From an uncultured bacterium (lineage in GTDB: Bacteria; Patescibacteriota; Minisyncoccia; Phycocordibacterales; CAIZLB01): a DNA stretch of 64,000 nt. Location: assembly GCA_903936565.1 (NCBI GenBank), contig CAIZVZ010000005.1:38315-102314 (forward strand). The letters are read 5' to 3'. This document shows, one piece after another, positions 10,907 through 64,000 of the stretch. The position numbers and the translations under genes are program-made. The notes below the pieces were generated by a model that saw nothing but the letters and a program-made list of their open reading frames with translations, searched no databases and was not told where the DNA came from. Position 1 is the stretch's first letter, and every line of letters begins with the position of its first letter.

Positions 10907-13900
10907 TTATTTTACAGGCTTAATGATAAATCTTATTTCTTGATCACCCACAGATACCGCCTCCCCTCCCTCTATATCATCTAGGATTAGACTCTCTGCC
11001 AAGACTGTCTTGGAGATCATCTTAGAATATTTTTCCATCAACATCTTTCCAACATTAGAATCCTCTATTTCCAAAATAATTTTATCCTGTGGAGAAAAAC
11101 CAAACGCCTTTCTAGCCTCCTGAACAGCCCTAATTAGGTCTCTAGACATTCCCTCCTCTTTCAATTCTTCAGTTAGTGCTGTATCGAGAATTATTTCATT
11201 TCCAATGGCAACATTTTTTACATTCAATTCATCCTTTATGATTTCTTCCAATTCCTTATTTAATGGTTTACCCTCCTTGTTATTGTAAATAAACGAAGCC
11301 AATGGTTGTCGAACCTTCAATTGAGACTTGGCACGAAGCGATAGACCGGTTTCAACCAAAGCTCTTGCGGATTCCATGTTTACCAGCAATATTTCTTCTT
11401 TTTCTGATAGAGCCCCCAAATCTGGCCAATCTTCCAGGTGAACACTTAGCATTCCATTCTTTTTATTAGTAGAACTATTAATTTGATCGCAATCGGCTAT
11501 TTTGACCTTCTGATATAAATCCTCTGCTGAAAATGGAACAACTGGTGCAATTATTTTTGACAGATTCAACAAAACGGCACGGAGAGTTGATATTGCAAAA
11601 TTTCTATCCACAATGTTGTCGCCTTTAAATCGATCTCTCGATCTTCTCAAATACCAAGTAGACAAATCGTCAATGAATGACGCAATTGGTCTAACCGCCC
11701 TAGAAACCATATATGCGTCCAAATCTCTAGTCATGTCATAGTTCAACTTTTTCAATCTTGCCCAAATCCATTGGTCTAATACATTTTCTGATTTAAGTAA
11801 ACAGAAACTATGAGCAGAGTCCTCCCCAAACATCTCTGAATACGTTTTGTAGAATGTATAAACGTTATCTAGTCTATTGAATATTTTCTTATTTATCTCG
11901 TCTAGTGATTTTTCAGAGAATGCCACCTCTTCAGCTGTTACCGCAGGAGATGTAACAAGGAAATATCGGAGTGAATCTGCACCATACTTCTCAACTATAC
12001 CCATTAGTTCTGGATAGTTATTCAAACTCTTTGCCATCTTTCTACCGTCTTCTGCTAGAATCAAACCATTTACAGAAACATTCTTAAATGGAGATTTACC
12101 AAACAGACTTACCCCCAAACACAATAATGAATAAAACCAGCCTCTAGTTTGATCTAGCCCTTCAGCAATAAAGTCCGCCGGGAATAACTTACTATCAGGC
12201 TTTTCAAACTCTTCTTTGTTTTCAAATGGATAGTGTTGTGAAGCAAAAGGCATAGCGCCTGAGTCATACCAAACATCAAAGACATCGGGGATTCTTCTCA
12301 TAATCTCTCCATCTTCATTTTTCCAAGTAACGGTGTCGATTAGCGGTCTGTGAATATCTAATTCAAAGTTTTCAGTATGTGGCCATTGCACAAAATCAAT
12401 ATAGTGAAGTGAGCCGTTTGGATCTGATACATCACTCCATCCACTTCTAACCATATCTCGTGTTGTTCTTCCGTTGGCAACCTCCCTCATCATCCTAAGT
12501 GGTAATCCGTGAGTAATAATCAAAATATTTTCATCCTTATTTTCCGAATCTATTGAGTAAAGCGCTCCCGCAACACGCTTCTTCACATCAAAAGCCGACT
12601 CACCGTCTTTTGGAGCAGAAAAAACTCTATCTTCCTCATTTTTAAACATTCTTGGTCTCTCTTCCCATGAACCACCCTCCAACACACCCCCGTCACACTC
12701 TCTAAGACGAGGATCATAAATTATTTTTGACTCATCAAGACCAAGGGCTTCTGCAACAATTTTTGTTGACTCTTTAGTCCTTCTGAAATCAGAAGCGTAG
12801 ATTTTTGTAACTGGACGATTAGCATCACCACCACCCAACACACCGCCAGCTTTTAGTTTTTTAGCAGACTCCATTATTTGAGATGCTCCCTTTTCAGTTA
12901 ACCCATATAGATTTAGATCGTGTGAATTTACAACCCCCCTCACATTTGACTCGGATTCCCCGTGTCGCATCAAGACATATTTATTATTATTTGAGCTTTG
13001 TCTAATTTTTTCTTTTAAATCAGAAAATGATCCAATTATTTCCGTTTTACCACTTTCAGATTTCCACATTGGAACAGGCGCTCCCCAATATCTAGTTCTT
13101 GAAATTGCCCAGTCTCTTATGTTTTCCAACCACTCCCCAAAACGGCCAGAGCCAATTTCTTTTGGCACCCAGTTTATTTTATTATTTTCTGCAATCAATT
13201 CATTTTTCAAAGATGTAGTCCTTACAAACAAACTTGTTGTTGCAAAGTTTATAAGTGGAGTCTCACATCTCCAACAGTGAGGATATGAGTGAATCATTTT
13301 TTCCTTTGCAAGAAGAACGCCTTTACCTGCCAAGATTTTTATTATTTCAACATCCGCACTTTGATGATCTTCTTTTGGTTTTGCTGGTTTACCCATCATT
13401 TCTGTTATCAAGTCGATAAAACAACCGTCAAAACCGACATGTTTAATAACAGGAAGATTATTAGCCTTAGATAACTTCATGTCATCATCTCCATAGGCTG
13501 GAGCAATATGAACAATTCCCGTTCCGTCCTCAGCGGTAACAAAAGCAGCGTCGCAAACCTTCCAAATATTTTGTCTATTCTTTTCAGATGTTTCCAATGT
13601 TCCCTCTTTTTTGTAATAGTCAAAAACTGGCTCGTATGAAATGCCAACCAAATCTTTTCCAGATAATGGCTTATTAGGATCTATTAATGGAAGCACTGCG
13701 CAATCCTCCGAAACTACCTTTTTGGTTTTCAATGTTTCAAAAAGACTTTCTGCAAAGATATAATTTTCTACTCCAACTGAAACGCAAACATAATTCAATT
13801 CTGGGTTCACTGCAAGCGCCACGTTTCCAGGAAGTGTCCATGGAGTTGTCGTCCAAGCTACAAATGATGTTTTTACAGACGCGTCGATATTATAAAAAGA

Positions 13901-14635
13901 TTTAACCTGCCCTAGCGACTCATTTTTAATTTCAAATTTAACAAAAACTGAAATGTCGGCAATGTCCTTATAGCCCTGTGCTACCTCAAAGTTTGAAAGC
14001 GGAGTTCCACAGCGAGGACAAATTTGCATCACCTTGTAATCTTCGAATACCAAACCCTTTTTATCAAGCTCCTTAAATGACCACCAAACAGACTCGGTAT
14101 AACTTGAATCCATTGTTCTATAATCATTATCCATATCCGACCATCTACCAATTCGTTGTATTCTATTTTTCCACTCATCAGCATAAGTCAAAACACTTTC
14201 CCTTGCTGCACTGTTAAATTTATCAATACCGTATTCCTCAATAGCTTTTTTATCCTTTAATCCAAGTTTTTTCTCTATTAAGTTCTCGATAGGTAGACCG
14301 TGACAGTCCCAACCCCACTTTCTATCAACATGAAATCCGCGCATGGTTTTATACCTCGGAATCAAGTCCTTTAGAGAGTTTGGCAGGATATGTCCAAAGT
14401 GAGGAAGGCCGGTTGCGTAAGGAGGACCATCGTAGAATACGAAGTTACCAAGCGGTGATTCCTTTTTAAGAGTTTGTTCAAAAATATGATTCTCATTCCA
14501 GAAAGCAAGTACGGCATTTTCTTTTGTTGAAATTGCACTAACCGCACCCTCAACCTGTGTACCCTGCACATTTTGTGCCGCGGGAACCTTCCCATGCCCT
14601 TTATCTTCAGGCATTTTATTATTTAAATCGTTCAT
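10907..14635 (-). CDS. ileS: Isoleucine--tRNA ligase, type 2 (eukaryote-like), carrying an inserted histidine-phosphatase-like domain
   Basis: FYDGPPYATGLPHFGHIL (HIGH region), TTTPWTLPGN (CP1 editing) and KMAKSLNNYP (KMSKS). 1242 aa. Confidence 0.9.
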   Translation of the reverse strand: MNDLNNKMPEDKGHGKVPAAQNVQGTQVEGAVSAISTKENAVLAFWNENHIFEQTLKKESPLGNFVFYDGPPYATGLPHFGHILPNSLKDLIPRYKTMRGFHVDRKWGWDCHGLPIENLIEKKLGLKDKKAIEEYGIDKFNSAARESVLTYADEWKNRIQRIGRWSDMDNDYRTMDSSYTESVWWSFKELDKKGLVFEDYKVMQICPRCGTPLSNFEVAQGYKDIADISVFVKFEIKNESLGQVKSFYNIDASVKTSFVAWTTTPWTLPGNVALAVNPELNYVCVSVGVENYIFAESLFETLKTKKVVSEDCAVLPLIDPNKPLSGKDLVGISYEPVFDYYKKEGTLETSEKNRQNIWKVCDAAFVTAEDGTGIVHIAPAYGDDDMKLSKANNLPVIKHVGFDGCFIDLITEMMGKPAKPKEDHQSADVEIIKILAGKGVLLAKEKMIHSYPHCWRCETPLINFATTSLFVRTTSLKNELIAENNKINWVPKEIGSGRFGEWLENIRDWAISRTRYWGAPVPMWKSESGKTEIIGSFSDLKEKIRQSSNNNKYVLMRHGESESNVRGVVNSHDLNLYGLTEKGASQIMESAKKLKAGGVLGGGDANRPVTKIYASDFRRTKESTKIVAEALGLDESKIIYDPRLRECDGGVLEGGSWEERPRMFKNEEDRVFSAPKDGESAFDVKKRVAGALYSIDSENKDENILIITHGLPLRMMREVANGRTTRDMVRSGWSDVSDPNGSLHYIDFVQWPHTENFELDIHRPLIDTVTWKNEDGEIMRRIPDVFDVWYDSGAMPFASQHYPFENKEEFEKPDSKLFPADFIAEGLDQTRGWFYSLLCLGVSLFGKSPFKNVSVNGLILAEDGRKMAKSLNNYPELMGIVEKYGADSLRYFLVTSPAVTAEEVAFSEKSLDEINKKIFNRLDNVYTFYKTYSEMFGEDSAHSFCLLKSENVLDQWIWARLKKLNYDMTRDLDAYMVSRAVRPIASFIDDLSTWYLRRSRDRFKGDNIVDRNFAISTLRAVLLNLSKIIAPVVPFSAEDLYQKVKIADCDQINSSTNKKNGMLSVHLEDWPDLGALSEKEEILLVNMESARALVETGLSLRAKSQLKVRQPLASFIYNNKEGKPLNKELEEIIKDELNVKNVAIGNEIILDTALTEELKEEGMSRDLIRAVQEARKAFGFSPQDKIILEIEDSNVGKMLMEKYSKMISKTVLAESLILDDIEGGEAVSVGDQEIRFIIKPVK

Positions 14636-34186: not shown

Positions 34187-35308
34187 TTATTGATCTTTTA
34201 ATAAAGCCAGGCCAAAAGCAGTACCATACCCCAAAGATTCTCGCATGGAAATCTCTGGTATTTCATTCTCAAACGATAGAATGTTAGTCCAAACATTCGC
34301 AACCTCAACCGGAGTCTTTAGTGATATTGCGAGGAAGTCTCTAAAACCAACAACACCAGCTTCCTTTCCCGCTATTAATATCTTCTTGACTCCCGCTGAT
34401 GAATTACCGTTATTTGGTAAACCAGAAACCGCATCAACATTACTCTTAAAATTATTTATACTATTCCAGTAAATAAACACCTTTCTAATTTCCTCGACCA
34501 ACAAATTAGCAGTTGACATCAACGCATTAGAAACGGCCTCATTACCAATGTCTCGTGAAAAACCCTTCTCGAACTTTATTGAAACAGCAGCATCTTCATC
34601 GAGGGACGCACCTTTCATAATGGCGTTAGTAAAATCTTCGGATCCAATAGCGATCGTGGAGGTAAACTGAACAGCCTCATCGTTCACAACCGACAAGACA
34701 GTACTCTTGTGACTAATGTTAACAATGAAATAATTTTCTCTGTCCCCTTTTTTGATAATAGCTCGAGATAATGCTTGGTTTTCAATAAGAAAGGAAATTG
34801 GAAACATTCCGCAAGACTCAAACAACTCAATATATTCATTTATCACAACAACTGGCACAACAGAGACGGCCAAAAATTGCATACCCGTACTCTCATTTTT
34901 CTTTATTCTATGATAATCAAAAATTGCATCATCTAACGATAATGGCACATTTTCTTCAAGGTGCATCTCTATTCTATTTCTAATTTCTTCTTTTGTTCCA
35001 TCGACCACCTCGATAGTGAACAGATAAGCCTTCTCTTCTGGAATAGATATCTCTACAAACTTTAACTTATATTTTTTTTGAATCTTTTTTAATATATCTA
35101 TTAGATTTTTATTAGACAACAGTGATTCATTCGGCAAAATCGGTGATTCCAACTTTTCCTCGGTACAACATTTTAATTTTAACCCCCTAGCAGTTCTAAT
35201 AATTTCAGCCATATGAACAGCGGAGGAGCTGATATCAAAACCAGCATGGGACATTTCTAGATAGTGCGAAGTTGGAAAATATTTATTTAATGTATCTAGG
35301 TACGACAT
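34187..35308 (-). CDS. pilM: Type IV pilus assembly protein PilM (actin-like ATPase fold)
   Basis: 373 aa. Architecture and motifs of the FtsA/PilM family (…ILIAGKEAGVVGF… …GYGTAFGLALL…). Heads the pilMNO cluster. Confidence 0.65.
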   Translation of the reverse strand: MSYLDTLNKYFPTSHYLEMSHAGFDISSSAVHMAEIIRTARGLKLKCCTEEKLESPILPNESLLSNKNLIDILKKIQKKYKLKFVEISIPEEKAYLFTIEVVDGTKEEIRNRIEMHLEENVPLSLDDAIFDYHRIKKNESTGMQFLAVSVVPVVVINEYIELFESCGMFPISFLIENQALSRAIIKKGDRENYFIVNISHKSTVLSVVNDEAVQFTSTIAIGSEDFTNAIMKGASLDEDAAVSIKFEKGFSRDIGNEAVSNALMSTANLLVEEIRKVFIYWNSINNFKSNVDAVSGLPNNGNSSAGVKKILIAGKEAGVVGFRDFLAISLKTPVEVANVWTNILSFENEIPEISMRESLGYGTAFGLALLKDQ

Positions 35309-46358: not shown

Positions 46359-47774
46359 TTACTTAATTTCCTTCAAGCTATCCTCACTGAAAGTTTTTAT
46401 ACTTGGGACAATTCCATCGATGACCGATCCTTTCCCTTTACTTTTTATTTCTCTAATAATTGGGTTCATTTTACCTACACAAGCTCTTATTTTAGCCTTT
46501 TGTACATCTGGAGTCACGTCCATTTTAAGCAACAAACCGAATGATTCAGAAAGAGTTACCAAAGCCCCCTTCATTTGATTTTTAGTTTTAGGTGATGGAG
46601 GTAGTGAAGAGTTCTTTTTTAATGATTCAAGAGCTTCTTCAACTTTTCTAGTTTCCTCTTCTCTTCTTTCATTCTCATTAACGTCTAAAACCTCTACCCC
46701 CTCCTCACCAGTCTCAGAAGCACCTCCTGCAGTTTCAGGTGTTGATGCCCCAGCCGCTGCTCCAGCCTCCGATGTTGGACTCCTTTGTGAGTTTTCTCTT
46801 AAAATATCTACCTTTCTTGTTGTATATTCAGCTTTAACATCTTCAAATTTTGAAATTCTTTTATCTGTTGCATCAATAGAAGATGAAAGTTTAGTTCTAG
46901 CACCCTCAAGATTACTAAGTTTTACCTTGCTTTCTTTTATCAATTTATTATACCCTTCCATAGCCCCTTTAATTACGGCCTTATCTTCACCACGGGCCAA
47001 CTCATAAGATCTTTTAAGGGCATTGTACTGATTACCGGCATCATTAATTACATTAGTTAGTTTATCTATTCCACCATCAACACTGCGAAGTCTTTCTCTG
47101 TTTTGTTCATAGTTAGTACTTTGTTTAATTCGCTCAGACCTTCCATCTGCACTTGCAATAAAACCATCAACTATTACAACCCTCCTGTTTTTATAACCCT
47201 CAAGAGCGGATGTTAAAGCTTTTTCTTCCGCTTTAAGATCTTCCATTTTAGTGGTTGCCATCTTAGCGGTTGCTTCAGCTTCCAATTTTTTAAAAACAGC
47301 GACCAATGCAGGGTTATTATTGAGTTCAGCCTCCTTAATATTTTGTTTTATTCCATCAAGTACAGCCTTGTTTGCTTGGGTTTGAGCCTCCGCTCTTGAT
47401 TGGTTTTTTTCAATTTTTGCCTTAACCCTTTCAATTTCTTGGACTTTTTTTGCTATCATCTGCTCATTAGCAGAATTTTCACCATTCATATTGGATTTTT
47501 CTTTAGTTGAAAGCGCCTTGAAACTTCGGTAGTCAGAAAACCAAGCTGTTTTACGTTTCAACACATCCCCAATGCTAGCAAAAAGACCTTTGGCTTCCTT
47601 GTGATCCACAAGAGATGCCGTTATAGCATCAGCCTCAAGGCTGGCTGCGGTAGTTCTGTTTAAAACAGACTCTTTTGGAGCAGCGGCTGCCGCTGTTCTT
47701 CTTGTTATTGCTGGTGGTGTTGGGGATGTTGGAGTTGTTTCTGCTGGCGGTGTTGTTGGTGCTGATTCTGTCAT
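46359..47774 (-). CDS. Coiled-coil protein with Pro/Thr/Ala-rich N-terminus, unknown function. Divergently transcribed from pilB.
   Basis: 471 aa. Long heptad-like K/E/A-rich segments and a low-complexity N-terminus. Confidence 0.45.
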   Translation of the reverse strand: MTESAPTTPPAETTPTSPTPPAITRRTAAAAAPKESVLNRTTAASLEADAITASLVDHKEAKGLFASIGDVLKRKTAWFSDYRSFKALSTKEKSNMNGENSANEQMIAKKVQEIERVKAKIEKNQSRAEAQTQANKAVLDGIKQNIKEAELNNNPALVAVFKKLEAEATAKMATTKMEDLKAEEKALTSALEGYKNRRVVIVDGFIASADGRSERIKQSTNYEQNRERLRSVDGGIDKLTNVINDAGNQYNALKRSYELARGEDKAVIKGAMEGYNKLIKESKVKLSNLEGARTKLSSSIDATDKRISKFEDVKAEYTTRKVDILRENSQRSPTSEAGAAAGASTPETAGGASETGEEGVEVLDVNENERREEETRKVEEALESLKKNSSLPPSPKTKNQMKGALVTLSESFGLLLKMDVTPDVQKAKIRACVGKMNPIIREIKSKGKGSVIDGIVPSIKTFSEDSLKEIK

Positions 47775-47912: not shown

Positions 47913-49628
47913 ATGACAATCCACTTTGATGAAGATAAACAAAATACTAGAATGAAGAAACTCCTTCTTGATGAGGAGGAAGCGGCAATGCAAATGTTGG
48001 CAGAGAAGTACAGTGTTACATACATAGATTTAACAACAGTTTCTATTAACTCAGATGGACTGAAGTTAATTGAAGAAAAAACAGCCAGAGAAAGCCTAGT
48101 GGCTATTTTTGATATTGTTGGAACCAAGATTTCTATTGCAGTCCACTCCCCTGAAAGCAATGACACAAAGGACGTATTAGATACTCTGGAAAGGAGTGGT
48201 TACAAGGCAACTGTTTTTATAGCCTCAATTCACAGCCTAGAGAAAGCCTGGGAGCGTTACAAGGATATAAACTTCGCCACAGAAACAGAAGCTGGATCAC
48301 TTGATATTTCAAACGAGGAAATCGAGTCGTTAGTCCAAAGAACCAAGAATCTTGAGGATATTTCTAAGTGGATAGCAGAAGCCTTGGAGATGAAAAAAAC
48401 CCACAGGGTGTCAAAAATGCTTTCTATTGTTATGGCCGGAGCGCTTTCCACCAAATCTTCCGACGTTCACATAGAAGCCGGGGAACTAAAAGCACGCCTT
48501 AGGTATAGAATAGACGGTGTTTTAACAACGGTTTCAGAATTTGACAAGGAAACTTATGAATTAACACTCTCTCGTATTAAGTTACTTTCTGGTTTAAAAC
48601 TAAATATCAAAGAAAATGCACAAGACGGCAGATTCACAGTTAAAATCAAGAACACTGATATTGAGATAAGAACCTCCACGATTCCTGGTTCTTACGGTGA
48701 GTCTGTGGTTATGCGTATTCTTAATCCTGAATCCATTATGGTTACTATGGATAAGTTAGGTATGTCAAAGCGTTTTCTTGAGGCGGTAAGAAAGGAAATT
48801 GCTAGACCAAATGGCCTTATTTTAACAACCGGACCAACCGGTTCTGGAAAAACTACAACTCTTTATGCATTTTTAAGGGAGGTGTCTAATCCTGAATATA
48901 AAATAATCACGATTGAAGACCCCGTTGAATACCACCTTCCTGGTATTGTTCAAACACAAGTTGAAGAATCTAAGGGTTACACTTTCGAAGCGGGACTGAA
49001 GTCTGCAATGAGACAAGACCCTGACATCATAATGGTTGGAGAAATTCGAGATGCCGAAACTGCAATTACAGCAATTAATGCGGCGCTGACGGGACACCTT
49101 GTATTCTCCACCCTTCACACAAACAATGCCGCTGGAACATTTACTAGATTAATAGATCTAGGTGCAGATCCAAAAACACTAACGTCTGCAATCCACGCCG
49201 CTATCGCCCAAAGACTAGTTAGAGTTATCTGTGACAAATGCAGAAAGAAAGTTCCGATACCAACAGAGCGGGTTGCTTTAGTTGATGATGTTTTAGAATC
49301 AATAAAGAACATGGAAGAGGGTAAGGAGTTTATAGAAAAGCCAACTGAAATTTATATACCCGTTGGATGTGAGGCTTGCAACAACACAGGTTATTTTGAC
49401 AGAATTGGAATTCACGAATTAATTTTAACTGACGCTTCGATTGAAAAAATAGTTAGAGAAAATCCAAGTGAAAGAGAGATTAAAGCTGTGGCTAAAAAAC
49501 AAGGCTTTATGGACATGAGACAGGATGGTGTAGTGAAAGTTTTACAAGGTATTACATCATTCGATGAATTGGAACGTGTTATTGATTTAGCCAAGGATGA
49601 TTTCATAGAAGAAACACCTCTTGTATAA
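47913..49628 (+). CDS. pilB: Type IV pilus assembly / type II secretion ATPase (PilB/GspE family)
   Basis: T2SSE_N-like N-terminus, Walker A GPTGSGKTTTLYA, Asp and His boxes, and a C-terminal tetracysteine (CDKC…CEAC). Confidence 0.85.
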   Translation: MTIHFDEDKQNTRMKKLLLDEEEAAMQMLAEKYSVTYIDLTTVSINSDGLKLIEEKTARESLVAIFDIVGTKISIAVHSPESNDTKDVLDTLERSGYKATVFIASIHSLEKAWERYKDINFATETEAGSLDISNEEIESLVQRTKNLEDISKWIAEALEMKKTHRVSKMLSIVMAGALSTKSSDVHIEAGELKARLRYRIDGVLTTVSEFDKETYELTLSRIKLLSGLKLNIKENAQDGRFTVKIKNTDIEIRTSTIPGSYGESVVMRILNPESIMVTMDKLGMSKRFLEAVRKEIARPNGLILTTGPTGSGKTTTLYAFLREVSNPEYKIITIEDPVEYHLPGIVQTQVEESKGYTFEAGLKSAMRQDPDIIMVGEIRDAETAITAINAALTGHLVFSTLHTNNAAGTFTRLIDLGADPKTLTSAIHAAIAQRLVRVICDKCRKKVPIPTERVALVDDVLESIKNMEEGKEFIEKPTEIYIPVGCEACNNTGYFDRIGIHELILTDASIEKIVRENPSEREIKAVAKKQGFMDMRQDGVVKVLQGITSFDELERVIDLAKDDFIEETPLV

Positions 49629-51801: not shown

Positions 51802-52101
51802 ATGACTGACGACCTATTGAATGATTCACTTACGGATGACACTTCTGAGGACGAAGTTCCAACTGAAGATACAGACCTAGATGAGATCGATGCCGATCTT
51901 GAGGAGAGTGATGTTGATCCATTATTAAGTACTCCGCTTGACGAAGATGCAGATGAGCTACCTGAAGATGCTGAAGTCGCACCAGACGATGAAGACCCCT
52001 TTGGTTTTGGAACACTTAAGATGGATGAAAATGGAGAGGTTGTAGAAGATGATGTGGATGAAGATGATGTAGAGGAGGAAGTTGATGAAAACTTATTTTA
52101 A
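51802..52101 (+). CDS. Small extremely acidic protein (about 45% D/E), unknown function
   Basis: 99 aa: MTDDLLNDSLTDDTSEDEVPTEDTDLDEIDADLEESD…. Confidence 0.4.
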   Translation: MTDDLLNDSLTDDTSEDEVPTEDTDLDEIDADLEESDVDPLLSTPLDEDADELPEDAEVAPDDEDPFGFGTLKMDENGEVVEDDVDEDDVEEEVDENLF

Positions 52102-54951: not shown

Positions 54952-56052
54952 TTATTTATTCATCGGCATCAATAGATACAGAAAACTTTGTTCCCCAAAA
55001 GCCTTCATAATCATCGGTTTATTAACCCCACTAAAAGATAGTGTTAAGCTGTCGGAACCTATAGAAACCAAGGCGTCCATTATATATTTGTAATTAAAGT
55101 TAATATTCAACGCCTCCCCCGTTATATTCCCTGGTATTGTAACGGTATTTTCACCAACGTTATTGTTTTTTGTAACAACCTCAATATTTTTCTCCTCTGG
55201 GTGAATTATAAACTTAGTGTGATTAAATGAATCTGTAAAAATTGAACTTGTTTTAAAACAATTCACCAAATCCTGCTTTAGGATTGTAATTTCAGAAACA
55301 AACTCCTTTGGAATAATAGCTTTGTAATTAGGAAAATTACCTTCGACAATCCTGGAAACCAAATATATATCATTATAACTTATTGCTATTTGATTTTGTT
55401 CAATGGTAATTTTTAAATCATCATTAATACCTTCAAAAAATCTAATTATCTCGACTGCATTCTTAACCGGTATCAGAACCTGAGAAAAATCAATCATCTT
55501 TTTAAGTTTTAATGTTTTTTCCGCTAGACGTAATCCATCCGTTGCAACAAACACAATAGAATCGTCCTCAGGAGTCACACAAACGCTGGAGAGCTCAGGT
55601 TTAATACTCGAAGTAGCAGAACTATACCAAACAGACTTAATACCTCCCACAAGGCTTTCTGCGGGTATTTCAATATATTTAGACATATCAACCTTAGGTA
55701 TTATCGGATAATCATCATTTGGAAATATTTTAATGATTGTATTTGTCTTTGGAGTTGATACAAGTAGATTTCCATCCTGTAAATCTAAGGTAACTGTTTT
55801 TTCGAGTTGTATACTATTCAAGAATGAGTTCAACACAGAACCTGGTATTGCAACAGATCCTTCAACCTCAACTTTTGCAGGTATTTTAATTTCAATACCA
55901 ACATCTAGATTTGTTGAGTTAATGAATAAACTATTTTCAGTTGCTTTTAAAAGAATACAACTAAGAACTGGTAATGTATTGTTCTTACTTGTAATCTTTT
56001 CAGCTTTTGAAACAGCTTCAGCTAACCTCTCTCTTATGCATTCTATTTTCAT
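54952..56052 (-). CDS. dnaN: DNA polymerase III beta subunit (sliding clamp)
   Basis: MKIECIRERLAEAVSKAEKITSKNNTLPVLSCILLKATENSLFINSTNLDVGIE… with three-domain clamp length (366 aa). Confidence 0.9.
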   Translation of the reverse strand: MKIECIRERLAEAVSKAEKITSKNNTLPVLSCILLKATENSLFINSTNLDVGIEIKIPAKVEVEGSVAIPGSVLNSFLNSIQLEKTVTLDLQDGNLLVSTPKTNTIIKIFPNDDYPIIPKVDMSKYIEIPAESLVGGIKSVWYSSATSSIKPELSSVCVTPEDDSIVFVATDGLRLAEKTLKLKKMIDFSQVLIPVKNAVEIIRFFEGINDDLKITIEQNQIAISYNDIYLVSRIVEGNFPNYKAIIPKEFVSEITILKQDLVNCFKTSSIFTDSFNHTKFIIHPEEKNIEVVTKNNNVGENTVTIPGNITGEALNINFNYKYIMDALVSIGSDSLTLSFSGVNKPMIMKAFGEQSFLYLLMPMNK

Positions 56053-56424
56053 GGTGTATTAATTATATATCTTTATTAATAAAAAAGCTTATCACTACTA
56101 TAGCTGTGGATATGTGGACTTTTTGATATACCCTTTAATTTAACTCTTTTTTGATAAAAGACAAACTAAGAGACAGTGTTTCTGATGGTGGCTTAAATAA
56201 TGTCTTTTAGAGGTATGTTGATAAGTACACATAGAACTAACATCGTATACAGAGTACTATACAGCTTTTATACAGGATAAACATATAATACCAACATGTT
56301 ATGCACATACTTATACACATTTTCAGCTACAAATATATGTTGTTTAATAAGAAAAACAGCGGTTTTGGACGCTGTTTCCGTATATTAACCCAGGTTTAGG
56401 GGTATAGGTATGGAACTCTTTTAA
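56053..56424. promoter_or_regulatory. Candidate oriC / dnaA-dnaN intergenic region with DnaA-box-like 9-mers and AT-rich tract
   Basis: TGTGGATAT (56105-56113), TGTGGACTT (56113-56121), TTATACACA-like boxes and an AT-rich stretch at 56250-56400. Classical rpmH-dnaA-dnaN neighbourhood. Confidence 0.45.
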
Positions 56425-57759
56425 TTAGATCATTGCCTTGATTTGATTGATTTCGGATTGTAGTTCGGTGTTAATTTTAAGTTCATTCTTAATTTTTTCA
56501 CAGGAGTGTATTACGGTTGTATGGTCTCTTCCCCCTAATTTTTGACCGATTGACGGTAGGGATATGTTGTAAAACTCTCTTAATATGTACATCGTTAGTT
56601 GTCTTGGTTTTACCACCTCCTGTCTCCTTGTTTTGTTGTATATTGCCTCTTCTTCTATGTTGTAGAAAGCTGATACTGCTCTAACAACATCCTTAACAGA
56701 TACGTTCTTATGGGGCTTACCTGAGTTCTTTGTGAATTGTTTAACTTCATTCAGTGTCAAATCTCTACCTTTAAGTTGAGATTGGCATATAACTGTATTT
56801 AAAATACCCTCTAATTCTCTTATACTTCCCCCAACAGAGGTTGCTAAACACATTGCAATTTCATTGGAAAGTGAAAAGTTGTTAATTCTAGCCTTGGTCT
56901 TTAGGATTGCCATTCTTGATTCTGTGTCAGCTGGTGAAATGTCAATGATCATTCCGGCCATGAACCTTGATTTTAAACGATCCTCAATGTTAGGTAGATA
57001 GTTGACGTGAACATCTGATGAAAATATGATTTGCTTATTGTTATCATATAAGTGATTAAATAGGTGAAACAACTCCTCCTGGGTTTTTTCCTTATTTGAA
57101 AGGAATTGTATATCATCTATGATTAAAACATCATATTTCCTATACTTATCCTTAAAATTATTGATTTTTCCTGCTTGTAGTGAGGTTATGTAGTCTGTTG
57201 TGAACTTTTCAGAAGTAACATAAAAAACCCTTCTGTCTTTATTGTGGTTCTTTATATGATTTCCTATGGCCTGCATTAAGTGAGTTTTACCCAACCCTGT
57301 GTTGCCGTAGTAAAAAAGAGGGTTATAAGCAACAGGCTTCTTGATTATTGCCTGAGCTGCAGCGTGCGCTAACTCATTAAACTGTCCCACAACAAAGTTT
57401 TCAAAGGTATAACGAGGGTTTAGATTGTCTTCTGGATTAATAAACAGACCACTAAGAGGTAAATCCTTACTTATCGATGATTCCCCTTCTTCACCATCCT
57501 CCTTCTTCTTTTTCTGTGCAGCAATTATATATTCTACAGATCTGATATTTTCATCCTCTGTTCGCAATATTTCAAGAATTTTTTTGTGATATCTTTGTGA
57601 TAACCATTCTTTTGCAAAAGTATTTGGTACAGCTAGATAAACAATACCCCCATCTATCTTATTTATATAAGTGTCTTTAAACCATGTTGAAAAATTAGCT
57701 CTTGAGACTTCGATTTCCATTTGTGCTAATACTCCATCCCATAGTTTTTTTATCTCCAT
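56425..57759 (-). CDS. dnaA: Chromosomal replication initiator DnaA (likely start MEIKKLWDG…; the ORF-track start uses an upstream alternative codon)
   Basis: Domain I N-terminus, AAA+ Walker A (YYGNTGLGKTHLMQAIGN), and C-terminal DNA-binding helix-turn-helix (…DHTTVIHSCEKI…). Confidence 0.9.
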   Translation of the reverse strand: MEIKKLWDGVLAQMEIEVSRANFSTWFKDTYINKIDGGIVYLAVPNTFAKEWLSQRYHKKILEILRTEDENIRSVEYIIAAQKKKKEDGEEGESSISKDLPLSGLFINPEDNLNPRYTFENFVVGQFNELAHAAAQAIIKKPVAYNPLFYYGNTGLGKTHLMQAIGNHIKNHNKDRRVFYVTSEKFTTDYITSLQAGKINNFKDKYRKYDVLIIDDIQFLSNKEKTQEELFHLFNHLYDNNKQIIFSSDVHVNYLPNIEDRLKSRFMAGMIIDISPADTESRMAILKTKARINNFSLSNEIAMCLATSVGGSIRELEGILNTVICQSQLKGRDLTLNEVKQFTKNSGKPHKNVSVKDVVRAVSAFYNIEEEAIYNKTRRQEVVKPRQLTMYILREFYNISLPSIGQKLGGRDHTTVIHSCEKIKNELKINTELQSEINQIKAMI

Positions 57760-57828
57760 ATTGCTAAATATTATACCCTCTGCTTTTTTAAAAGAAACTT
57801 GAAGAAAATATAAAAGTATGTTCATACC

Positions 57829-57837
57829 TGTGGATAA
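57829..57837. promoter_or_regulatory. Perfect consensus DnaA box (TGTGGATAA, complement of TTATCCACA) in the dnaA upstream region
   Basis: Sequence acctgTGGATAActcg, about 70 nt upstream of the proposed dnaA start. Confidence 0.5.
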
Positions 57838-57936
57838 CTCGTTTACTTTATGCAAAAATGTTTCTTAATTTTTAAGACCATATTTAAAGGGTGATTAAAG
57901 TTTACAAAAAATCAAAAATGATGTAATATCCTTGTT

Positions 57937-58071
57937 ATGTCTCAAACATACCAACCAAATAAGAGAAAGAGAGCTAAAACACACGGTTTCCTTGTGAGAA
58001 CATCAACACATGGAGGACGTCGTGTTTTGGCGGCTCGTCGCGCTAAAGGTAGAAAGAAACTGTCAGTATAG
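57937..58071 (+). CDS. rpmH: 50S ribosomal protein L34 (below the ORF-track size cutoff)
   Basis: Translation [44 protein letters not shown] is the canonical L34. Upstream of rnpA and divergent from dnaA. Confidence 0.85.
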
Positions 58072-58121
58072 CCCCTGTTTACTTTGGTGTGTTTCTTAAG
58101 CACCCTTAAATAAAGCCATTC

Positions 58122-58535
58122 ATGACCATAAAAAGCCTTTCTTCCTCGCAAATCGCAGAAATTATGAAAAAGGGAAAAGCCTATAATTCAGGCTTTTTTC
58201 TTTTGAAGGTGGGTGAAGGTAGGGGTGTAAGGGGTTTAATAAATGATAATAATGTCGGTGTTGTTGGTGATTCAATAGAAAATGGTTACAACGACCTCAA
58301 AGGATCGTTTTTGTCTTCCAAAAAGGTCTATTTAAAAGCTGTAGATAGAAATAGAACTAAAAGAATACTAAAAGAGGCTTTTATTAAGGCTATCAAGGAC
58401 GTTAACAGTGATAATTTAAAAGTTTCTATCCCCTATTTTGTGATTCTTTCTAATAAAAACACAATTAAGGAAGAATTTGCTGATATTGTTAAAGATGTAA
58501 AGCAAATTTTATTAAAAGATTATATAATAAGATAA
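58122..58535 (+). CDS. rnpA: RNase P protein component
   Basis: …KAVDRNRTKRILKEAF… equals the RnpA RNR motif. Lies between rpmH and yidC. Has a Gly-rich insertion. Confidence 0.7.
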   Translation: MTIKSLSSSQIAEIMKKGKAYNSGFFLLKVGEGRGVRGLINDNNVGVVGDSIENGYNDLKGSFLSSKKVYLKAVDRNRTKRILKEAFIKAIKDVNSDNLKVSIPYFVILSNKNTIKEEFADIVKDVKQILLKDYIIR

Positions 58536-59269
58536 TGATATCAAATTTTTTTAGCGTAACATTTTATAACCCCCTCTATAATGGACTTGTTTTTATAATT
58601 AATAATACCCCTGGAGCTGATTTGGGTGTAGCTGTTATTATATTTACATGTATCGTTAAGTTTATTTTAATTCCCCTTTCAAAAAGCTCTGTTGTAACAC
58701 AGTTAAAAATGAAGGCATTAGAGCCTGAATTAAATAAAATTAAAGAAAAGTATGCGGATAATAAGGAGGAGCAAGCCAGAAAGATGTTTGAGTTCTACAA
58801 GGAAAATAAGCTTAATCCATTTTCTGGAATATTCTTATTGCTAATTCAGCTACCAATCATCCTTTCTCTTGCTAGTATATTCTATACATCAGGTCTACCT
58901 AATATTAATGCAAATATTTTGTATGATTTTATTCCAAACCCCCAGACGGTAAATACTTTTTTCTTGGGTTTTTTGGATGTAACAAAAAAGAATTTTTGGT
59001 TAAGTGTTGTTGTTGGAGTCACTCAATTTATACAAATTAGATACTCTGTCCCTGCTTATAAGTCATCAGGAAAAGCTGGAAAACAAGAGGAGTTTGCAAA
59101 AAGTATGAATATTCAAATGAGATATACAATGCCTGCAATTGTATTTTTAATATCATTTAGCTTAACCTCCGCTATTTCTCTATATTGGATAACCTCGAAT
59201 ATCTTTGCAATCGCACAGGAAGTGTACTTTAGAAAAACAGTTAAAAAAGACCTTGAAAATAAACAATAA
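58535..59269 (+). CDS. yidC: Membrane protein insertase YidC/Oxa1 (short form)
   Basis: 244 aa with the five-TM core (…MKALEPELNKIKEKY…KMFEFYKENKLNPFSGIFLLLIQLPIIL…). Confidence 0.8.
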   Translation: MISNFFSVTFYNPLYNGLVFIINNTPGADLGVAVIIFTCIVKFILIPLSKSSVVTQLKMKALEPELNKIKEKYADNKEEQARKMFEFYKENKLNPFSGIFLLLIQLPIILSLASIFYTSGLPNINANILYDFIPNPQTVNTFFLGFLDVTKKNFWLSVVVGVTQFIQIRYSVPAYKSSGKAGKQEEFAKSMNIQMRYTMPAIVFLISFSLTSAISLYWITSNIFAIAQEVYFRKTVKKDLENKQ

Positions 59270-59308: not shown

Positions 59309-60820
59309 TTATTTGGCGGTTGTTGTTGATGTGGAGTTTGTACTTGTCCCGTTCTTAACACTGGTTTTTGTATTAGAGGAAGCCTTAGTGCTTTTGGTTG
59401 ATGTGGCTGTTGACGTTGCTTTTTGAGGCTTTTCAATTTGAAGACCCCATAAACTAAGATCCTTTTTGTTTGTAAAAATAAGGTAATCCTCGTTTTTATT
59501 TAATGATATGTTAGTAACATCTACCCCATCCTTTACGGTATCTTTTACTACACATAATAGTTTGTTTTCTAATGTATCAAGGTTTATTTTCCAAATATTA
59601 TCATTGAAGAAAACTAATCCTTGGTACCAAGCATCTGGGTATGGAGCATAAACAATTGATTCACTAGCCGCACAGAATATTGTGTTCTTTTCTAATAACG
59701 ACCAAGTACACTTCTCTGGTAAGGTCCTTATGAAAATATCCTTAATTGAGTTTGTTTTTATGTTTAAAACACTTAGCTTTGTACTTCCATCTATACTTTC
59801 TCCAATTAAGACGTTTTGACCATCAGGAGAAACGAGTGTTGTTAAACCTGGTTGACCCCCAGTAATTCTTTTAAATGACTTTGTTTTTGTATTTATTGAG
59901 TAAGCAAAACCTTCAGAATAAAACGATGGTTTGGTGTTTAGAACCAGCATGTCCTTGTTTGGCCAAGACAATAGCCACTCTCTAAAGGGTGATTTATATA
60001 GATTTATAACACCTGTGCCATCTAATCTACCTATGTTGACCGAAGATCCAACACCTTTTTGCTCAACATAATAAGCAAAAGAATCTCTTTCTGGTGACAG
60101 GGATACTGACAAAAGATTGTATGGTAGGTCTTTTGTAATTAAAGACATTGACGTGGAGGTTGGGGACTCAAATATTGTGGCGCCAAGCCTGGTTTGAATA
60201 TTATCAGAATTACCAAGTAAACCTCTTAATAAAATATTTTCACCCTTTTTGTCAAAAAAAGCCTCGGTAATTCTAGTGTGAGTTGAGTTTGTAATTCTCT
60301 CAACTACTGTTGTTGAAGATTTAGCCTCATATACTCTACCTGTTCCTTTTTCTATATATCTTATGTTTTCTTCTTGGGCTAGTATTTTAGGTTTAATTAC
60401 TGTTGTTTTTTTAGAAGATACTGTTTTCGTTGTTGGTTTTGTAGATGTGGAATTTGTAGATGTTGAGATGTTTTGTTGTAATTGAATTGATGAAGATGAT
60501 GTTGTTGCAACAATATCCCTAATAACGAAAGCTGCACCAGATATGGGGCTGGAGGTAATCATTCTTAAGGGGTTTATCTTTGGGGTAGTTGTAGCTTGGG
60601 GTTGGTCGTTTATATTACCGTTTTCAGGCGGAACATTGTTAGTATTGTCTGTTGGAAGGTCTGTTCTAACACCTCCTATTCCACCAAAAATTGTCTTGTC
60701 GGTCGGTGTAGGTTTTACAGGTGGGGTTGACTTCTGTGTATAAAAATAAAAACCAGCAAGTACACCAAAAGCTATACTGATAATTATTAATATTGTTATT
60801 GTTAACTTTGTTTTAGACAT
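59309..60820 (-). CDS. Secreted/membrane-anchored protein with beta-propeller-like domain and S/T-rich linkers, unknown function (first gene of the T4SS-like cluster)
   Basis: 503 aa, N-terminal TM, a T/S/N-rich spacer, and repeated beta-strand blocks (…DGQNVLIGESIDGSTKLSVLNIKT…). Confidence 0.4.
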   Translation of the reverse strand: MSKTKLTITILIIISIAFGVLAGFYFYTQKSTPPVKPTPTDKTIFGGIGGVRTDLPTDNTNNVPPENGNINDQPQATTTPKINPLRMITSSPISGAAFVIRDIVATTSSSSIQLQQNISTSTNSTSTKPTTKTVSSKKTTVIKPKILAQEENIRYIEKGTGRVYEAKSSTTVVERITNSTHTRITEAFFDKKGENILLRGLLGNSDNIQTRLGATIFESPTSTSMSLITKDLPYNLLSVSLSPERDSFAYYVEQKGVGSSVNIGRLDGTGVINLYKSPFREWLLSWPNKDMLVLNTKPSFYSEGFAYSINTKTKSFKRITGGQPGLTTLVSPDGQNVLIGESIDGSTKLSVLNIKTNSIKDIFIRTLPEKCTWSLLEKNTIFCAASESIVYAPYPDAWYQGLVFFNDNIWKINLDTLENKLLCVVKDTVKDGVDVTNISLNKNEDYLIFTNKKDLSLWGLQIEKPQKATSTATSTKSTKASSNTKTSVKNGTSTNSTSTTTAK

Positions 60821-60824
60821 TTAT

Positions 60825-61565
60825 TTAAGGTGTTGTTACAGCTGAGGGTGATTGGAATATATCCCCTTCCCCGTTTTTAACTAATTCTGGATTAATGGTG
60901 TAAAGCAAAACATATGAAAATAAAGCTATAAAAAGTCCTGCCAAGGCGGCATTAACCTTCTTTCTTCCAGAGTCTGTTCCTGATACAGAATCTGTTGTTG
61001 CTAATTGAAGTCCGCCGAAGGTAATCATAACAATAGCTAATCCAATAGCCGCCATTACACCCACTCTGTAAACCTTTGAAAAGAATTGGCGAATACCGCT
61101 GGTGGAAAGATCTAAACTCTCCACAGTGTCTCCTCCGGTTCCAGTTATTTTGTCACCAACTAAACCGTTCATTGGTGCAAGTAAACAATAATTCCATTTG
61201 CCGTCTTTTGGTGAGATTCCACAGGTGGCGGATCCTGAAGGTGATGTTTGGTCAAGTAGTGCTTGTGGTTGTTGATTTGGTGTTATAACTGGTGATTGTG
61301 GTGCTATGTATTGTGGTGTCCAGGTTTGAACTCCGTTAATTGTTTGTGGTGCGCCTGTTGGGTTGGGGGGATATCCTGGGTTTGAAAAATTTGGTTGGGC
61401 ATTCCAGTTGGCACCATTTGTAAAATCATTTGGATCTGAAACAATAGCGTGTGTAATGTTGGTTGTATTAAAAATCAAAAAAGAATAACAAAACAAAGAG
61501 ACTATAGAAAGTGTTGATAAAACTTTCATGCCTGAGTTTGTAGTTTTATTATTAAAAATATTCAT
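60825..61565 (-). CDS. Candidate VirB2/TrbC-like T4SS pilin (signal peptide, Pro-rich spacer, C-terminal two-TM hairpin)
   Basis: C-terminus VGVMAAIGLAIVMITFGGLQLATT…AALAGLFIALFSYVLLYTINP is a hydrophobic hairpin typical of VirB2-family pilins. Weak, context-based. Confidence 0.3.
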   Translation of the reverse strand: MNIFNNKTTNSGMKVLSTLSIVSLFCYSFLIFNTTNITHAIVSDPNDFTNGANWNAQPNFSNPGYPPNPTGAPQTINGVQTWTPQYIAPQSPVITPNQQPQALLDQTSPSGSATCGISPKDGKWNYCLLAPMNGLVGDKITGTGGDTVESLDLSTSGIRQFFSKVYRVGVMAAIGLAIVMITFGGLQLATTDSVSGTDSGRKKVNAALAGLFIALFSYVLLYTINPELVKNGEGDIFQSPSAVTTP

Positions 61566-61629
61566 TACTAATATAATACAATAAATAATGATTGGTGTAT
61601 ATTTAATAACATATACAAAATCAAATTAA

Positions 61630-62715
61630 CTACTTATTGTTAAACAAAAAATCTATAGCGTTCTGAGTCGTCTGCATTATGTGGGTTGGGTTTGACAGGT
61701 CAACCAAAACGCTTGCTAAATCAATCTTTTGAGTATCATTCCTTTTAATTGTTACTGTATTTGTGTTACTTGGAATTTTTATTTTCTCGGAGTTTACATA
61801 CCAAGTATATTCTAAGCCAGAATTTTTATTATCCACACTAAAATTATATGGAAAAACACTTATCTTTGATTCATTTCGGCTTCCAAGGTTTATTCGATTT
61901 GTAAGTGAATAATTAAACATTATTCCGTTGGTTGGGTTATCCTCGTAAAATAATGCGAAAGAGTTTTTGGTTGATAGGGTTGTTTCCCCCACACCTTTTT
62001 TTGATTCTTGTCCAACTGGATATGCTTCCACAGACATATCTTTGTCTAGGGATATTATATCAGCCTTATATTTGAAATAATTTTTACCGTACCCAGAATC
62101 ATCACCCATTACCTCCCTGTCCATACTCCATTTATATACAACATTTGAATCATTAACTCTCGAATTGCCGCTTACAAAGTTTGGTATAGCAACCATTGTT
62201 ACTGATGATTCTGGGGAAAATAAAGCCTTTCCTTTATAGAATGGTGGTGTGTAGGTTTCAGCTTGCCATAATAAATCTACGTTCGAAGGGTTAAAGACAA
62301 ATACCCTTGTAATTTGAGGTTGGTTTCTTGGAAATATATTTAGTGTTATTTTACTCTCCCCCGTTGAACCTACGTTAAAAGAAAGGTTTTTTTTACCAGC
62401 GCCTCTTAAAAACTCCTTCCCGTTAATTATCCACTGTATATCTGTAGAGTTTAGATCTAATCCGTATGTCTCAATTGTGATAGTTACATTGTCATTAGGC
62501 TTTGGAGTTTCCGGAGAAATATTTATATCTAATTGTTGCTTAATTTCTTTCATTTGTGCTGGTAGTGGGGAATTATTAACCCCTAACAGATCAGCAGTTT
62601 GAGCTGTAGCTTTATTGAACAGGTTAAAACCCTCAGATTGACTAAAGGTAAACAACATAAAAACTAAACCAGAAGTTAGAAGAATTTTTATATTTTGTTT
62701 ATTTAATTTAAGCAT
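61630..62715 (-). CDS. Secreted protein, unknown function (signal peptide, beta-rich)
   Basis: 361 aa with an N-terminal signal/TM and N/S/T-rich beta-sandwich-like repeats. Confidence 0.4.
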   Translation of the reverse strand: MLKLNKQNIKILLTSGLVFMLFTFSQSEGFNLFNKATAQTADLLGVNNSPLPAQMKEIKQQLDINISPETPKPNDNVTITIETYGLDLNSTDIQWIINGKEFLRGAGKKNLSFNVGSTGESKITLNIFPRNQPQITRVFVFNPSNVDLLWQAETYTPPFYKGKALFSPESSVTMVAIPNFVSGNSRVNDSNVVYKWSMDREVMGDDSGYGKNYFKYKADIISLDKDMSVEAYPVGQESKKGVGETTLSTKNSFALFYEDNPTNGIMFNYSLTNRINLGSRNESKISVFPYNFSVDNKNSGLEYTWYVNSEKIKIPSNTNTVTIKRNDTQKIDLASVLVDLSNPTHIMQTTQNAIDFLFNNK

Positions 62716-62801
62716 CCTATTAATTATCCTATTAATTATACATTGAAAATAACTTTTTGTTTAGATTTTATACACAAATATATAAAAATCACAAAAAGAA
62801 T

Positions 62802-63260
62802 TTATTTTTTTGTCATGGACATCGCTTTTTGAACCTTATTTGCAACAGCTGCACCCCCCGGTATTTTATCAGATAAACCCGCAACCATTGGCCCGAGATT
62901 TAAAATAACAGCCAACATAAAGGTTGGAATAATACTTACAAAAGGAACAAATTTAGCCAAGTCACATCCGCCAAATTTTAATACATTCTTAAGGTGAAAT
63001 TTAACACCAAGCGCTAAATAAATAAGGATTAAAATTATAGAACTTAGTCCCCAGCCTATAAGTGGAACTAAACCAAGTATATCCAAACATAAACCGACGA
63101 TTAGCATTATAATGAAGGTTGTCATTGTAATTTCCTTTTCACCCTCACCTGCACTTGATACTTCTGGATAATCTTCACTGTCAAAATCACTGGAGGAGTC
63201 CCGCCCAAGATGTCCTCCTGTTGATAAGCGATGTTGTGCTCTAGCTTGCCTTTCGTTCAT
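62802..63260 (-). CDS. Small polytopic membrane protein adjacent to the VirB4-like ATPase (VirB3-like position)
   Basis: 152 aa. A charged N-terminus, then three to four TM helices. Confidence 0.35.
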   Translation of the reverse strand: MNERQARAQHRLSTGGHLGRDSSSDFDSEDYPEVSSAGEGEKEITMTTFIIMLIVGLCLDILGLVPLIGWGLSSIILILIYLALGVKFHLKNVLKFGGCDLAKFVPFVSIIPTFMLAVILNLGPMVAGLSDKIPGGAAVANKVQKAMSMTKK

Positions 63261-63358
63261 TATATATATATTAGCAGACTAATTACTAATAAAAAAGGGA
63301 TTTACAAACTAGTTTGTAAATCCGCTTTTAAATAATTAACAATATCTCCGTTGGTCTT

Positions 63359-64000
63359 TTAAATACTTTGTTTAAGATTACTCATCTCTGTTGCTCTTTG
63401 TTCTGCTAATTCCGCCTTTTCTTTTTTGATTTGTAAAACTTCAGATGGTTTTGATGTAATAATTTGGTTTTCTGTGTATGATGCGATGACTTTGATTGCC
63501 ACATGCTTAAGTCCTGCAAAGAACATTCCCTCTCCAACATCCGATTCAAGAAGAAGATATTTTTCTTCGTCTGTTAAATTAAAGGTTTTTTGGACAATAT
63601 CTATTGAAGACGGAGACTGTTTTAATAGGATTTGAATAGAGGAGTTGGAAATAATTGGTAATCCATAAGGAGATTTTAGGAAGTCTTCAACGTCTTGTGT
63701 AATTGTTGCAAGGCCTAAATAATACTTTCTTCCTCTCTTTGCTAATCCAAGTAAGAATGACGCGGTGTCCTCAGATTTCATCAGGTACCACGCCTCGTCA
63801 ATAACTAAAAGTCTCTTCTTTAATTCTTTTCTAATAGCATTCCAAATGTGGTGCATAACTATATACATCGCAACAGGCTTCAATTCCTCCTCCATGTCTC
63901 GGAGTGAAAAAACAACGAATTTCTTATTAATATCTATATTTGAAGGCCTATTAATGAATCCAGCCCATGTTCCTTTGGTATACTTTGTTAATCTCTGGGT
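63359..64000 (-). CDS. VirB4/TrbE/CagE-family type IV secretion ATPase, C-terminal part (the gene continues beyond the window end)
   Basis: …RLLVIDEAWYLM… (Walker B DEAW), …RGRKYYLGLATITQDVEDF…, …GEGMFFAGLKHVAIKV… match the VirB4 C-terminal motifs. The reading frame stays open to position 64000. Confidence 0.7.
   Translation of the reverse strand, partial: TQRLTKYTKGTWAGFINRPSNIDINKKFVVFSLRDMEEELKPVAMYIVMHHIWNAIRKELKKRLLVIDEAWYLMKSEDTASFLLGLAKRGRKYYLGLATITQDVEDFLKSPYGLPIISNSSIQILLKQSPSSIDIVQKTFNLTDEEKYLLLESDVGEGMFFAGLKHVAIKVIASYTENQIITSKPSEVLQIKKEKAELAEQRATEMSNLKQSI

Follow-up and report, generated by a model that had tools for sequence, protein, structure and literature searches.

The 64,000-nucleotide stretch of contig CAIZVZ010000005.1 analyzed here (the window) ends in five minus-strand genes, at positions 59309 to 64000, that very likely make up the downstream third of a chromosomal cluster of 12 genes for a type IV secretion system (T4SS). 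We take this system to be a Patescibacteria-specific T4SS, derived from monoderm conjugation machinery and belonging to an uncultured freshwater member of the Paceibacteria. A prediction made earlier for the window (the original prediction) had described these five open reading frames (ORFs), all of which are present, as a chromosomally fixed machine and not a conjugative element. This view is borne out by the housekeeping genes on both flanks and by the same gene order in 80 species-level relatives. The interpretation is supported but already published, near-dnaA position and pilins included (PMC12102498; PMC10633639). What the locus newly adds appears to be three conserved, unannotated protein families that are near-universal in this clade.

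Reading from the window edge inward, the minus-strand genes encode the C-terminal piece of a VirB4 ATPase (63359..64000; 214 codons, in a frame open to the window edge), a small membrane protein of 152 aa (62802..63260), an immunoglobulin (Ig)-like protein of 361 aa (61630..62715), a VirB2-like pilin of 246 aa (60825..61565), and a beta-propeller protein of 503 aa (59309..60820). When the exact 152-aa protein was looked up, six metagenome contigs were found, from freshwater lakes (ENA) and one JGI sample; they match the window at 99.99–100% identity across as much as 11.2 kb, and window position 64000 is their locus position 9261. With these, the full cluster comprises 12 co-directional genes between uvrD/ksgA and yidC-rnpA-rpmH/dnaA. 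Starting at ksgA, the genes beyond the window encode a 282-aa bitopic protein on the same strand as the rest of the cluster; a 656-aa protein bearing an SLT lytic-transglycosylase domain at its C terminus (24.9 bits vs a cut-off of 21.3); an 881-aa polytopic VirB6-like protein; two soluble proteins of 248 and 114 aa; a 145-aa PrgI/VirB3 (41.1 bits vs a cut-off of 27); a 221-aa TrsD-like piece corresponding to the N-terminal VirB4/TraC part (L002 7346-8011); and the complete 615-aa VirB4 (L002 8055-9902), whose last 214 residues lie in the window. They are followed by the four remaining in-window genes. The original prediction had placed the rest of the ATPase and any VirB6 or VirD4 homologs beyond position 64000; the first two were found there, but no coupling protein was among the genes scanned.

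In a survey of 3,035 Patescibacteria genomes, the VirB4 proteins formed a monophyletic clade within MPF-FATA, and relaxases were almost absent (Quinonero-Coronel et al. 2025, PMC12102498). Near virB4, the same survey reported TrsD, PrgI/VirB3, VirB6, VirB1, and PF18895 pilins, as well as co-location with dnaA, dnaN, rnpA, ksgA, and rpmH in Paceibacteria and Microgenomatia. Judging by homology, our locus shares each of the defining features that we compared: an MPF-FATA-like VirB4, a separate TrsD, PrgI/VirB3 and VirB6, a VirB1-like hydrolase, a PF18895 pilin, and a vicinity free of relaxase and coupling protein by dnaA, dnaN, rnpA, rpmH, and ksgA. Nothing essential differs.

The ATPase was correctly predicted as a VirB4/TrbE-family protein, but the in-window fragment is not its C-terminal half: it is the C-terminal ~35% of the 615-aa ORF, which itself comes after the separate 221-aa TrsD-like piece. 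The fragment matches Pfam P-loop_TraG (4e-19) and contains the Walker B motif (LLVIDEAW); in the full ORF, both Walker A (GSGKS) and Walker B are intact. Because the full protein passes the curated cut-off of NCBIfam conju_CD1110 (363.5 bits vs 325), it can be assigned as a monoderm-type (MPF-FATA) VirB4 and not an FtsK/TraG coupling protein; the suggestion that the ATPase might be FtsK/TraG-like and part of a degraded mobile element was thus not borne out. Genetic code 25 had been raised when the ATPase ORF looked short, and was dismissed, since the reading frame runs on to the edge of the window and table 11 leaves long ORFs unbroken.

The TrsD-like ORF lies 44 nt upstream of virB4, matches Pfam TraC_F_IV (29.1 bits vs 28.1), and matches NCBIfam TrsD under its cut-off (8.3e-6). 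Since TrsD and VirB4 are two ORFs in all six identical contigs and in 79/79 relatives, the split is real and not a frameshift artefact. The same split occurs in pGO1 and in the systems of PMC12102498. For the 881-aa protein, the scan of its own sequence gave no family match; nine of 47 orthologs match Pfam TrbL/VirB6 (best 1.9e-7), which is why we assign it as an extended VirB6. Profile searches of PDB sequences with the VirB6-like and 282-aa families returned nothing meaningful. Paralogy between the 248-aa and 114-aa proteins is marginal (E=0.018), and we do not claim it.

The 246-aa protein was predicted to end in a VirB2/TrbC-like hydrophobic hairpin, which agrees with its orthologs. Its own match to Pfam T4SS_pilin (PF18895) is below the cut-off (E=0.044; 14.3 bits vs 26.6), but 52 of the 58 syntenic orthologs match this family (best 2.4e-10) and four match TrbC/VirB2 (8.3e-7); its place as a VirB2-like member of the T4SS_pilin family therefore stands by orthology. 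The protein consists of a signal peptide, an ~85-aa P/N/Q-rich insert, and the C-terminal two-helix T4SS_pilin domain (aa ~120–235). In the alignment, the conserved core reads Y-x-LL-x-PLP, a hydrophobic helix, a G-K-rich loop, a second hydrophobic helix, and TINP. Searched against PDB sequences, the pilin-domain profile gave nothing meaningful and no match to solved pilins, and the full-length profile returned only coiled-coil noise from C-terminal extensions. Such extensions, of 150–290 aa and coiled-coil, are borne by most pilin orthologs (L007-L086); the window pilin and a few others (L007, L036, L040) have the N-terminal insert and no C-terminal extension. Single orthologs carry 3D, SLT, NlpC/P60, or M15 peptidase domains, and such fusions of a pilin to a wall hydrolase are unusual.

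The other three in-window genes encode the remaining accessory proteins. For the 361-aa protein, which had been called secreted and beta-rich, AlphaFold2 and Foldseek agree with that description. The AlphaFold2 model, built on a 120-sequence alignment (mean pLDDT 87.5), has an N-terminal signal or anchor helix followed by three tandem beta-sandwich domains of Ig or fibronectin type III (FnIII)-like fold, and the protein is thus predicted to be secreted or anchored. The best Foldseek matches were to phage Hoc (6.8e-10), tandem FnIII domains of fibronectin, and the stalks of adhesins. No Pfam family was found for it, and its named homologs are all "hypothetical protein" from Parcubacteria or Paceibacterota. 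An exhaustive profile search returned 2321 representatives of 50%-identity clusters at E<=1e-30, nearly all ~340 aa long.

Structure prediction also agrees with the beta-propeller call for the 503-aa protein, in both AlphaFold2 and Foldseek. Its model (mean pLDDT 85.2, >95 in the propeller) has a transmembrane helix at aa 3–28, disordered linkers, a propeller of ~28 strands at aa ~146–461, which we read as seven-bladed, and an S/T-rich tail; the protein would thus be a membrane-anchored beta-propeller. Foldseek matches were generic, to WD40/RACK1 and TolB propellers (~1e-9), and the family profile matches TolB in the PDB weakly (2.8e-3). Two cysteines, C371 and C383, are invariant in the family, which would fit an extracytoplasmic location. 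A few of the propeller homologs carry a precomputed assignment to PF26549, which a Pfam scan of P0078 did not return.

The 152-aa protein has about three hydrophobic helices, and two residues never vary in its family alignment, an Asp of helix 1 and a Pro. The prediction had put it in a VirB3-like position, and this assignment fell: hhalign gives its family a probability of 0.6% against the cluster's own PrgI/VirB3 family, and the true VirB3 is the 145-aa PrgI, encoded upstream of virB4 and outside the window, whereas the 152-aa gene lies downstream of virB4. A second pilin was likewise ruled out (1.7% against the pilin domain). None of 52 family members matches Pfam, and profile searches found no PDB relative. 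Iterative searches with a hidden Markov model placed this divergent family directly after virB4 in 63 of the 77 loci that reach far enough, and we consider it a separate, conserved, and unannotated family of three-helix membrane proteins.

Scanned directly against Pfam and NCBIfam, none of the four in-window ORFs after virB4 scored above threshold. The original statement that the accessory proteins have no recognizable homologs thus holds for curated families only, as all four have many syntenic homologs. These proteins, which it had suggested could be novel components or substrates, are not orphans but conserved members of the cluster, and this conservation argues against variable substrates.

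To place the locus among relatives, we scanned GTDB species representatives with the VirB4 sequence, which yielded 80 loci (76–98% identity), all from metagenome-assembled genomes (MAGs). ORFs were called in all loci and searched with the cluster proteins, and presence was counted only in loci reaching far enough. The closest VirB4, from L007, is 98% identical, and those of the other 79 species representatives are 76–85% identical. All relatives with a taxon name are labeled Patescibacteria (Paceibacterota, Parcubacteria, Taylor-, Campbell-, Zambryski-, and Nomurabacteria, and several Saccharibacteria), and the rest are labeled "bacterium." The title "uncultured Candidatus Saccharibacteria bacterium" on L008, L014-L018, and other cluster-bearing MAGs is probably a blanket mislabel of the submission pipeline. 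Gene order and orientation are constant: uvrD, ksgA, the 282-aa, SLT, and VirB6-like genes, small proteins, PrgI, TrsD, VirB4, and the 152-, 361-, 246-, and 503-aa genes, then yidC-rnpA-rpmH and dnaA-dnaN. Upstream of virB4, TrsD is present in 79/79 loci, PrgI in 74/75, the VirB6-like protein in 61/61, the SLT protein in 56/57, and the 282-aa protein in 47/53. Downstream, the 361-aa protein is present in 68/68, the 246-aa protein in 55/56, and the 503-aa protein in 49/49, and yidC directly follows the propeller gene in 48/48. The upstream flank of distant relatives is likewise uvrD/pcrA and then ksgA.

The genes of the locus diverge at very different rates. Against L007, VirB4 is 98% identical, TrsD and DnaA 94%, YidC 92%, and DnaN 86%, followed by the triple-Ig protein (77%), the propeller (71%), the VirB6-like protein (57%), the pilin (56%), and the 152-aa protein (43%). 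In distant relatives (L011, L075), VirB4 retains 77–83% identity, with DnaA at 58–72% and DnaN at 48–55%. VirB4 is thus conserved above DnaA, DnaN, and YidC, and, being more conserved than DnaA, is under strong purifying selection. The 152-aa protein, the pilin, and the VirB6-like protein are among the least conserved proteins at the locus (43–57%). Rapid evolution of envelope and extracellular parts is what would be expected of host-facing components, and fits host-specific adaptation.

Several points weigh against reading the region as part of a T4SS of this kind. One is the pilin's subthreshold score in its own right, and another is that the Ig and propeller folds are generic, and Foldseek matched neither of them to an established T4SS subunit. 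Moreover, a consensus scan and the sequence itself reveal a terminator-like hairpin right behind the virB4 stop (63298..63323, minus strand; 11–12 bp stem plus T-run); it may act as an attenuator or delimit a transcript, and could make the four in-window genes a separate transcription unit. We inspected the window and ~9 kb beyond it, which is part of the genome, and a coupling protein or relaxase could lie elsewhere; VirD4 homologues do lie far from virB4 in many genomes (PMC12102498). Finally, the T4SS of Paceibacteria appears to be known from genes alone.

The second and third of these points bear on the main rival, in which the four genes after virB4 (152-aa, triple-Ig, pilin-like, and propeller) would be an independent envelope or adhesion operon and not parts of a secretion machine. 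In line with it, GC-rich hairpins similar to the one after virB4 recur in L007, L013, L029, L047, L070, and L071, some of which do not have the 152-aa gene, and that gene is absent from ~14/77 relatives. Yet the group includes a T4SS_pilin-family gene, and we know of no role for such a gene outside a T4SS. Order and orientation of the triple-Ig, pilin, and propeller genes are also invariant (68/68, 55/56, and 49/49), although the DnaN of these genomes is just ~50% identical, and the genes after virB4 are tightly packed, with 4–86 bp between them. Published pilin genes likewise lie near virB4 (PMC12102498). We therefore consider an independent operon unlikely.

As had been predicted, no relaxase or integrase was found nearby, and no coupling protein (T4CP), among the genes scanned or Pfam-annotated, namely all cluster genes, the flanking genes on either side, and all window ORFs of 420 aa or longer. 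The next 20 genes on the window side are housekeeping genes (PBP1A, RuvABC, PilB, TsaE, PolA, SpoU, Fpg). The marks of a conjugative element (relaxase, T4CP, integrase, or replication functions in a variable context) were not found at the locus, whose flanks are the same housekeeping genes in at least 47–48 species. These results bear on a second rival, a degraded or cryptic integrative conjugative element whose relaxase or integrase would lie just beyond the examined region. The conjugative MPF-FATA type of the VirB4 would agree with this, as would the limited extent of the inspection. Against it, the cluster is bounded by uvrD-ksgA and yidC-rnpA-rpmH-dnaA-dnaN in an order kept in dozens of species; neither the 20 window-side coding sequences nor the window ORFs of at least 420 aa include an integrase, relaxase, or T4CP; there is no flanking tRNA (the nearest is at 41.7 kb); the GC content of the cluster matches its surroundings; and VirB4 is more constrained than DnaA. 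We rejected the degraded-mobile-element reading on synteny and flank content, and regard it as extremely improbable.

A working DNA-transfer system, either conjugation-like or an importer like Ced, with an unrecognized relaxase or none, is also very unlikely in our view. It would accord with the conjugative ancestry, with the uvrD/pcrA-type helicase gene conserved two genes upstream, and with a resemblance to NCBIfam CedB that is weak and far under the cut-off (1e-10); the authors of PMC12102498 do suggest import of DNA or other macromolecules. However, uvrD is a housekeeping gene, and neither a coupling protein nor a relaxase was detected nearby. In Southlakia, moreover, the T4SS is essential and natural transformation (comEC) dispensable (PMC10633639, as related in PMC12857230).

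Because no relaxase or coupling protein was found, we do not think that the machine serves conjugation; we infer host contact and material transfer as its function. In the T4SS that we propose, VirB4 and the TrsD-like protein, identified by homology, would power assembly and transport, and PrgI/VirB3 and the extended VirB6-like protein would form the membrane translocon. The SLT-domain protein would open the cell wall, and the 246-aa pilin, assigned to its family through orthologs, may polymerize into a pilus or tube of VirB2 type extending to the host cell. The triple-Ig protein and the anchored propeller are, to judge by their strict synteny, predicted topology, and fold, probably extracellular, and may serve as an envelope-spanning scaffold or in host binding in place of the missing VirB8/9/10 proteins or adhesins; on the same grounds, the 152-aa protein would be an accessory subunit in the membrane. 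Macromolecules carried by the machine between epibiont and host would support the epibiotic way of life. We favor acquisition of host material over effector export, although direction and substrate cannot be read from sequence. A tentative extension, which we rate as somewhat less likely than not, is that the triple-Ig, propeller, and 152-aa proteins (plus the 282-aa protein) are undescribed structural subunits of the Paceibacteria T4SS. They would surround the VirB2-like pilus as an extracellular base, stalk, or module for host binding, replacing VirB8/9/10 and adhesins. If true, such subunits would imply an architecture unlike both Gram-positive and Gram-negative T4SSs. These four families are not described in the main text of PMC12102498.

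Another close system is the relaxase-less, pilin-bearing T4SS (SEML1_0006-0019) that Southlakia epibionticum ML1 requires for epibiotic growth (Wang et al. 2023, PMC10633639). Like our locus, it is chromosomal and combines Gram-positive-like subunits with pilins, and its low locus-tag numbers imply a site near the chromosome start. It differs in belonging to the class Saccharimonadia, in having a six-pilin array vs the single pilin gene here, and in having peptidase and lysozyme genes downstream of virB4, where our locus has the 152-aa, Ig, and propeller genes. Gram-positive MPF-FATA systems (pGO1 Trs, pCF10 Prg/Pcf, CTn2 CD1110) share the VirB4 family (CD1110 is the best NCBIfam model for our VirB4), PrgI, a VirB6-like protein, and a cell-wall hydrolase. 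However, they reside on plasmids or integrative conjugative elements with a relaxase, T4CP, and adhesin (PrgB), and do not have VirB2 pilins, whereas this cluster is chromosomal, has a pilin, and has no relaxase, T4CP, or adhesin. Gram-negative VirB2/TrbC pilins share the signal peptide, the hairpin of two hydrophobic helices, and the charged loop, with the four Pfam TrbC matches among the orthologs; they differ from the window pilin in its low-complexity insert before the pilin domain, and from most orthologs in the C-terminal coiled-coil extensions. Patescibacteria T4SSs were highlighted in a 2025 review (PMC12857230), and a 2026 preprint on a cultured Microgenomatia strain describes tubes that connect parasite to host, suggested to be T4SS pili, alongside the acquisition of RNA from the host (bioRxiv 10.64898/2026.06.21.733656).

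The predicted position of the cluster, abutting yidC/rnpA/rpmH/dnaA, agrees with the coordinates. The plus-strand operon of rpmH (57937..58071; L34 translation), rnpA (58122..58535; Pfam Ribonuclease_P), and yidC (58535..59269; Pfam 60KD_IMP) spans 57937..59269, is convergent with the T4SS cluster across a gap of 39 bp, and is the conserved right-hand limit of the cluster. Beyond it on the minus strand are dnaA (56425..57855; Pfam domains) and dnaN (54952..56052), which adjoins dnaA across a spacer (56053..56424). This spacer contains four near-consensus DnaA boxes (56105, 56216, 56299, and 56311), and the cumulative GC skew of the window has its minimum at ~56–58 kb. On these two grounds dnaA and the spacer are probably the oriC neighborhood, and the description of the cluster as next to the origin is reasonable. 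A promoter scan found 29 sites vs 32.8 expected from shuffles; with no enrichment, it was not used.

The window holds other features of note. Type IV pilus genes encode a PilB/T2SSE ATPase (47913-49628, plus strand; Pfam 1.3e-116) and PilM (34187-35308, minus strand; 2.6e-25), and type IV pilus and T4SS genes lie no more than 15 kb apart near the origin. A 471-aa ORF adjoining pilB (46359-47774, minus strand) has no Pfam match. In a 1242-aa isoleucyl-tRNA-synthetase-like ORF (10907-14635, minus strand), Pfam places a histidine-phosphatase domain (His_Phos_1, PGM-like) at aa 554–730, where it separates the catalytic part from the anticodon-binding part; such a fusion or insertion is unusual. 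A 702-aa protein (8212-10320, minus strand) has a DUF11 surface-repeat domain, and a 99-aa ORF (51802-52101, plus strand) is extremely Asp/Glu-rich.

The Patescibacteria T4SS is, to our knowledge, the only T4SS shown to be essential for the growth of its bearer, and it is a leading candidate for how ultrasmall epibionts tap their hosts. To that published concept, the locus adds nothing. It does show that, in a large clade of Paceibacteria, three unannotated and near-universal families are encoded beside the pilin gene, and the Ig-like family alone comprises more than 2,300 clusters at 50% identity. The locus also offers a useful pattern, an extremely conserved ATPase with fast-evolving envelope parts, which fits host-specific adaptation. 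Structural and genetic studies of pilus building and host contact by a monoderm T4SS have concrete targets in the three families.

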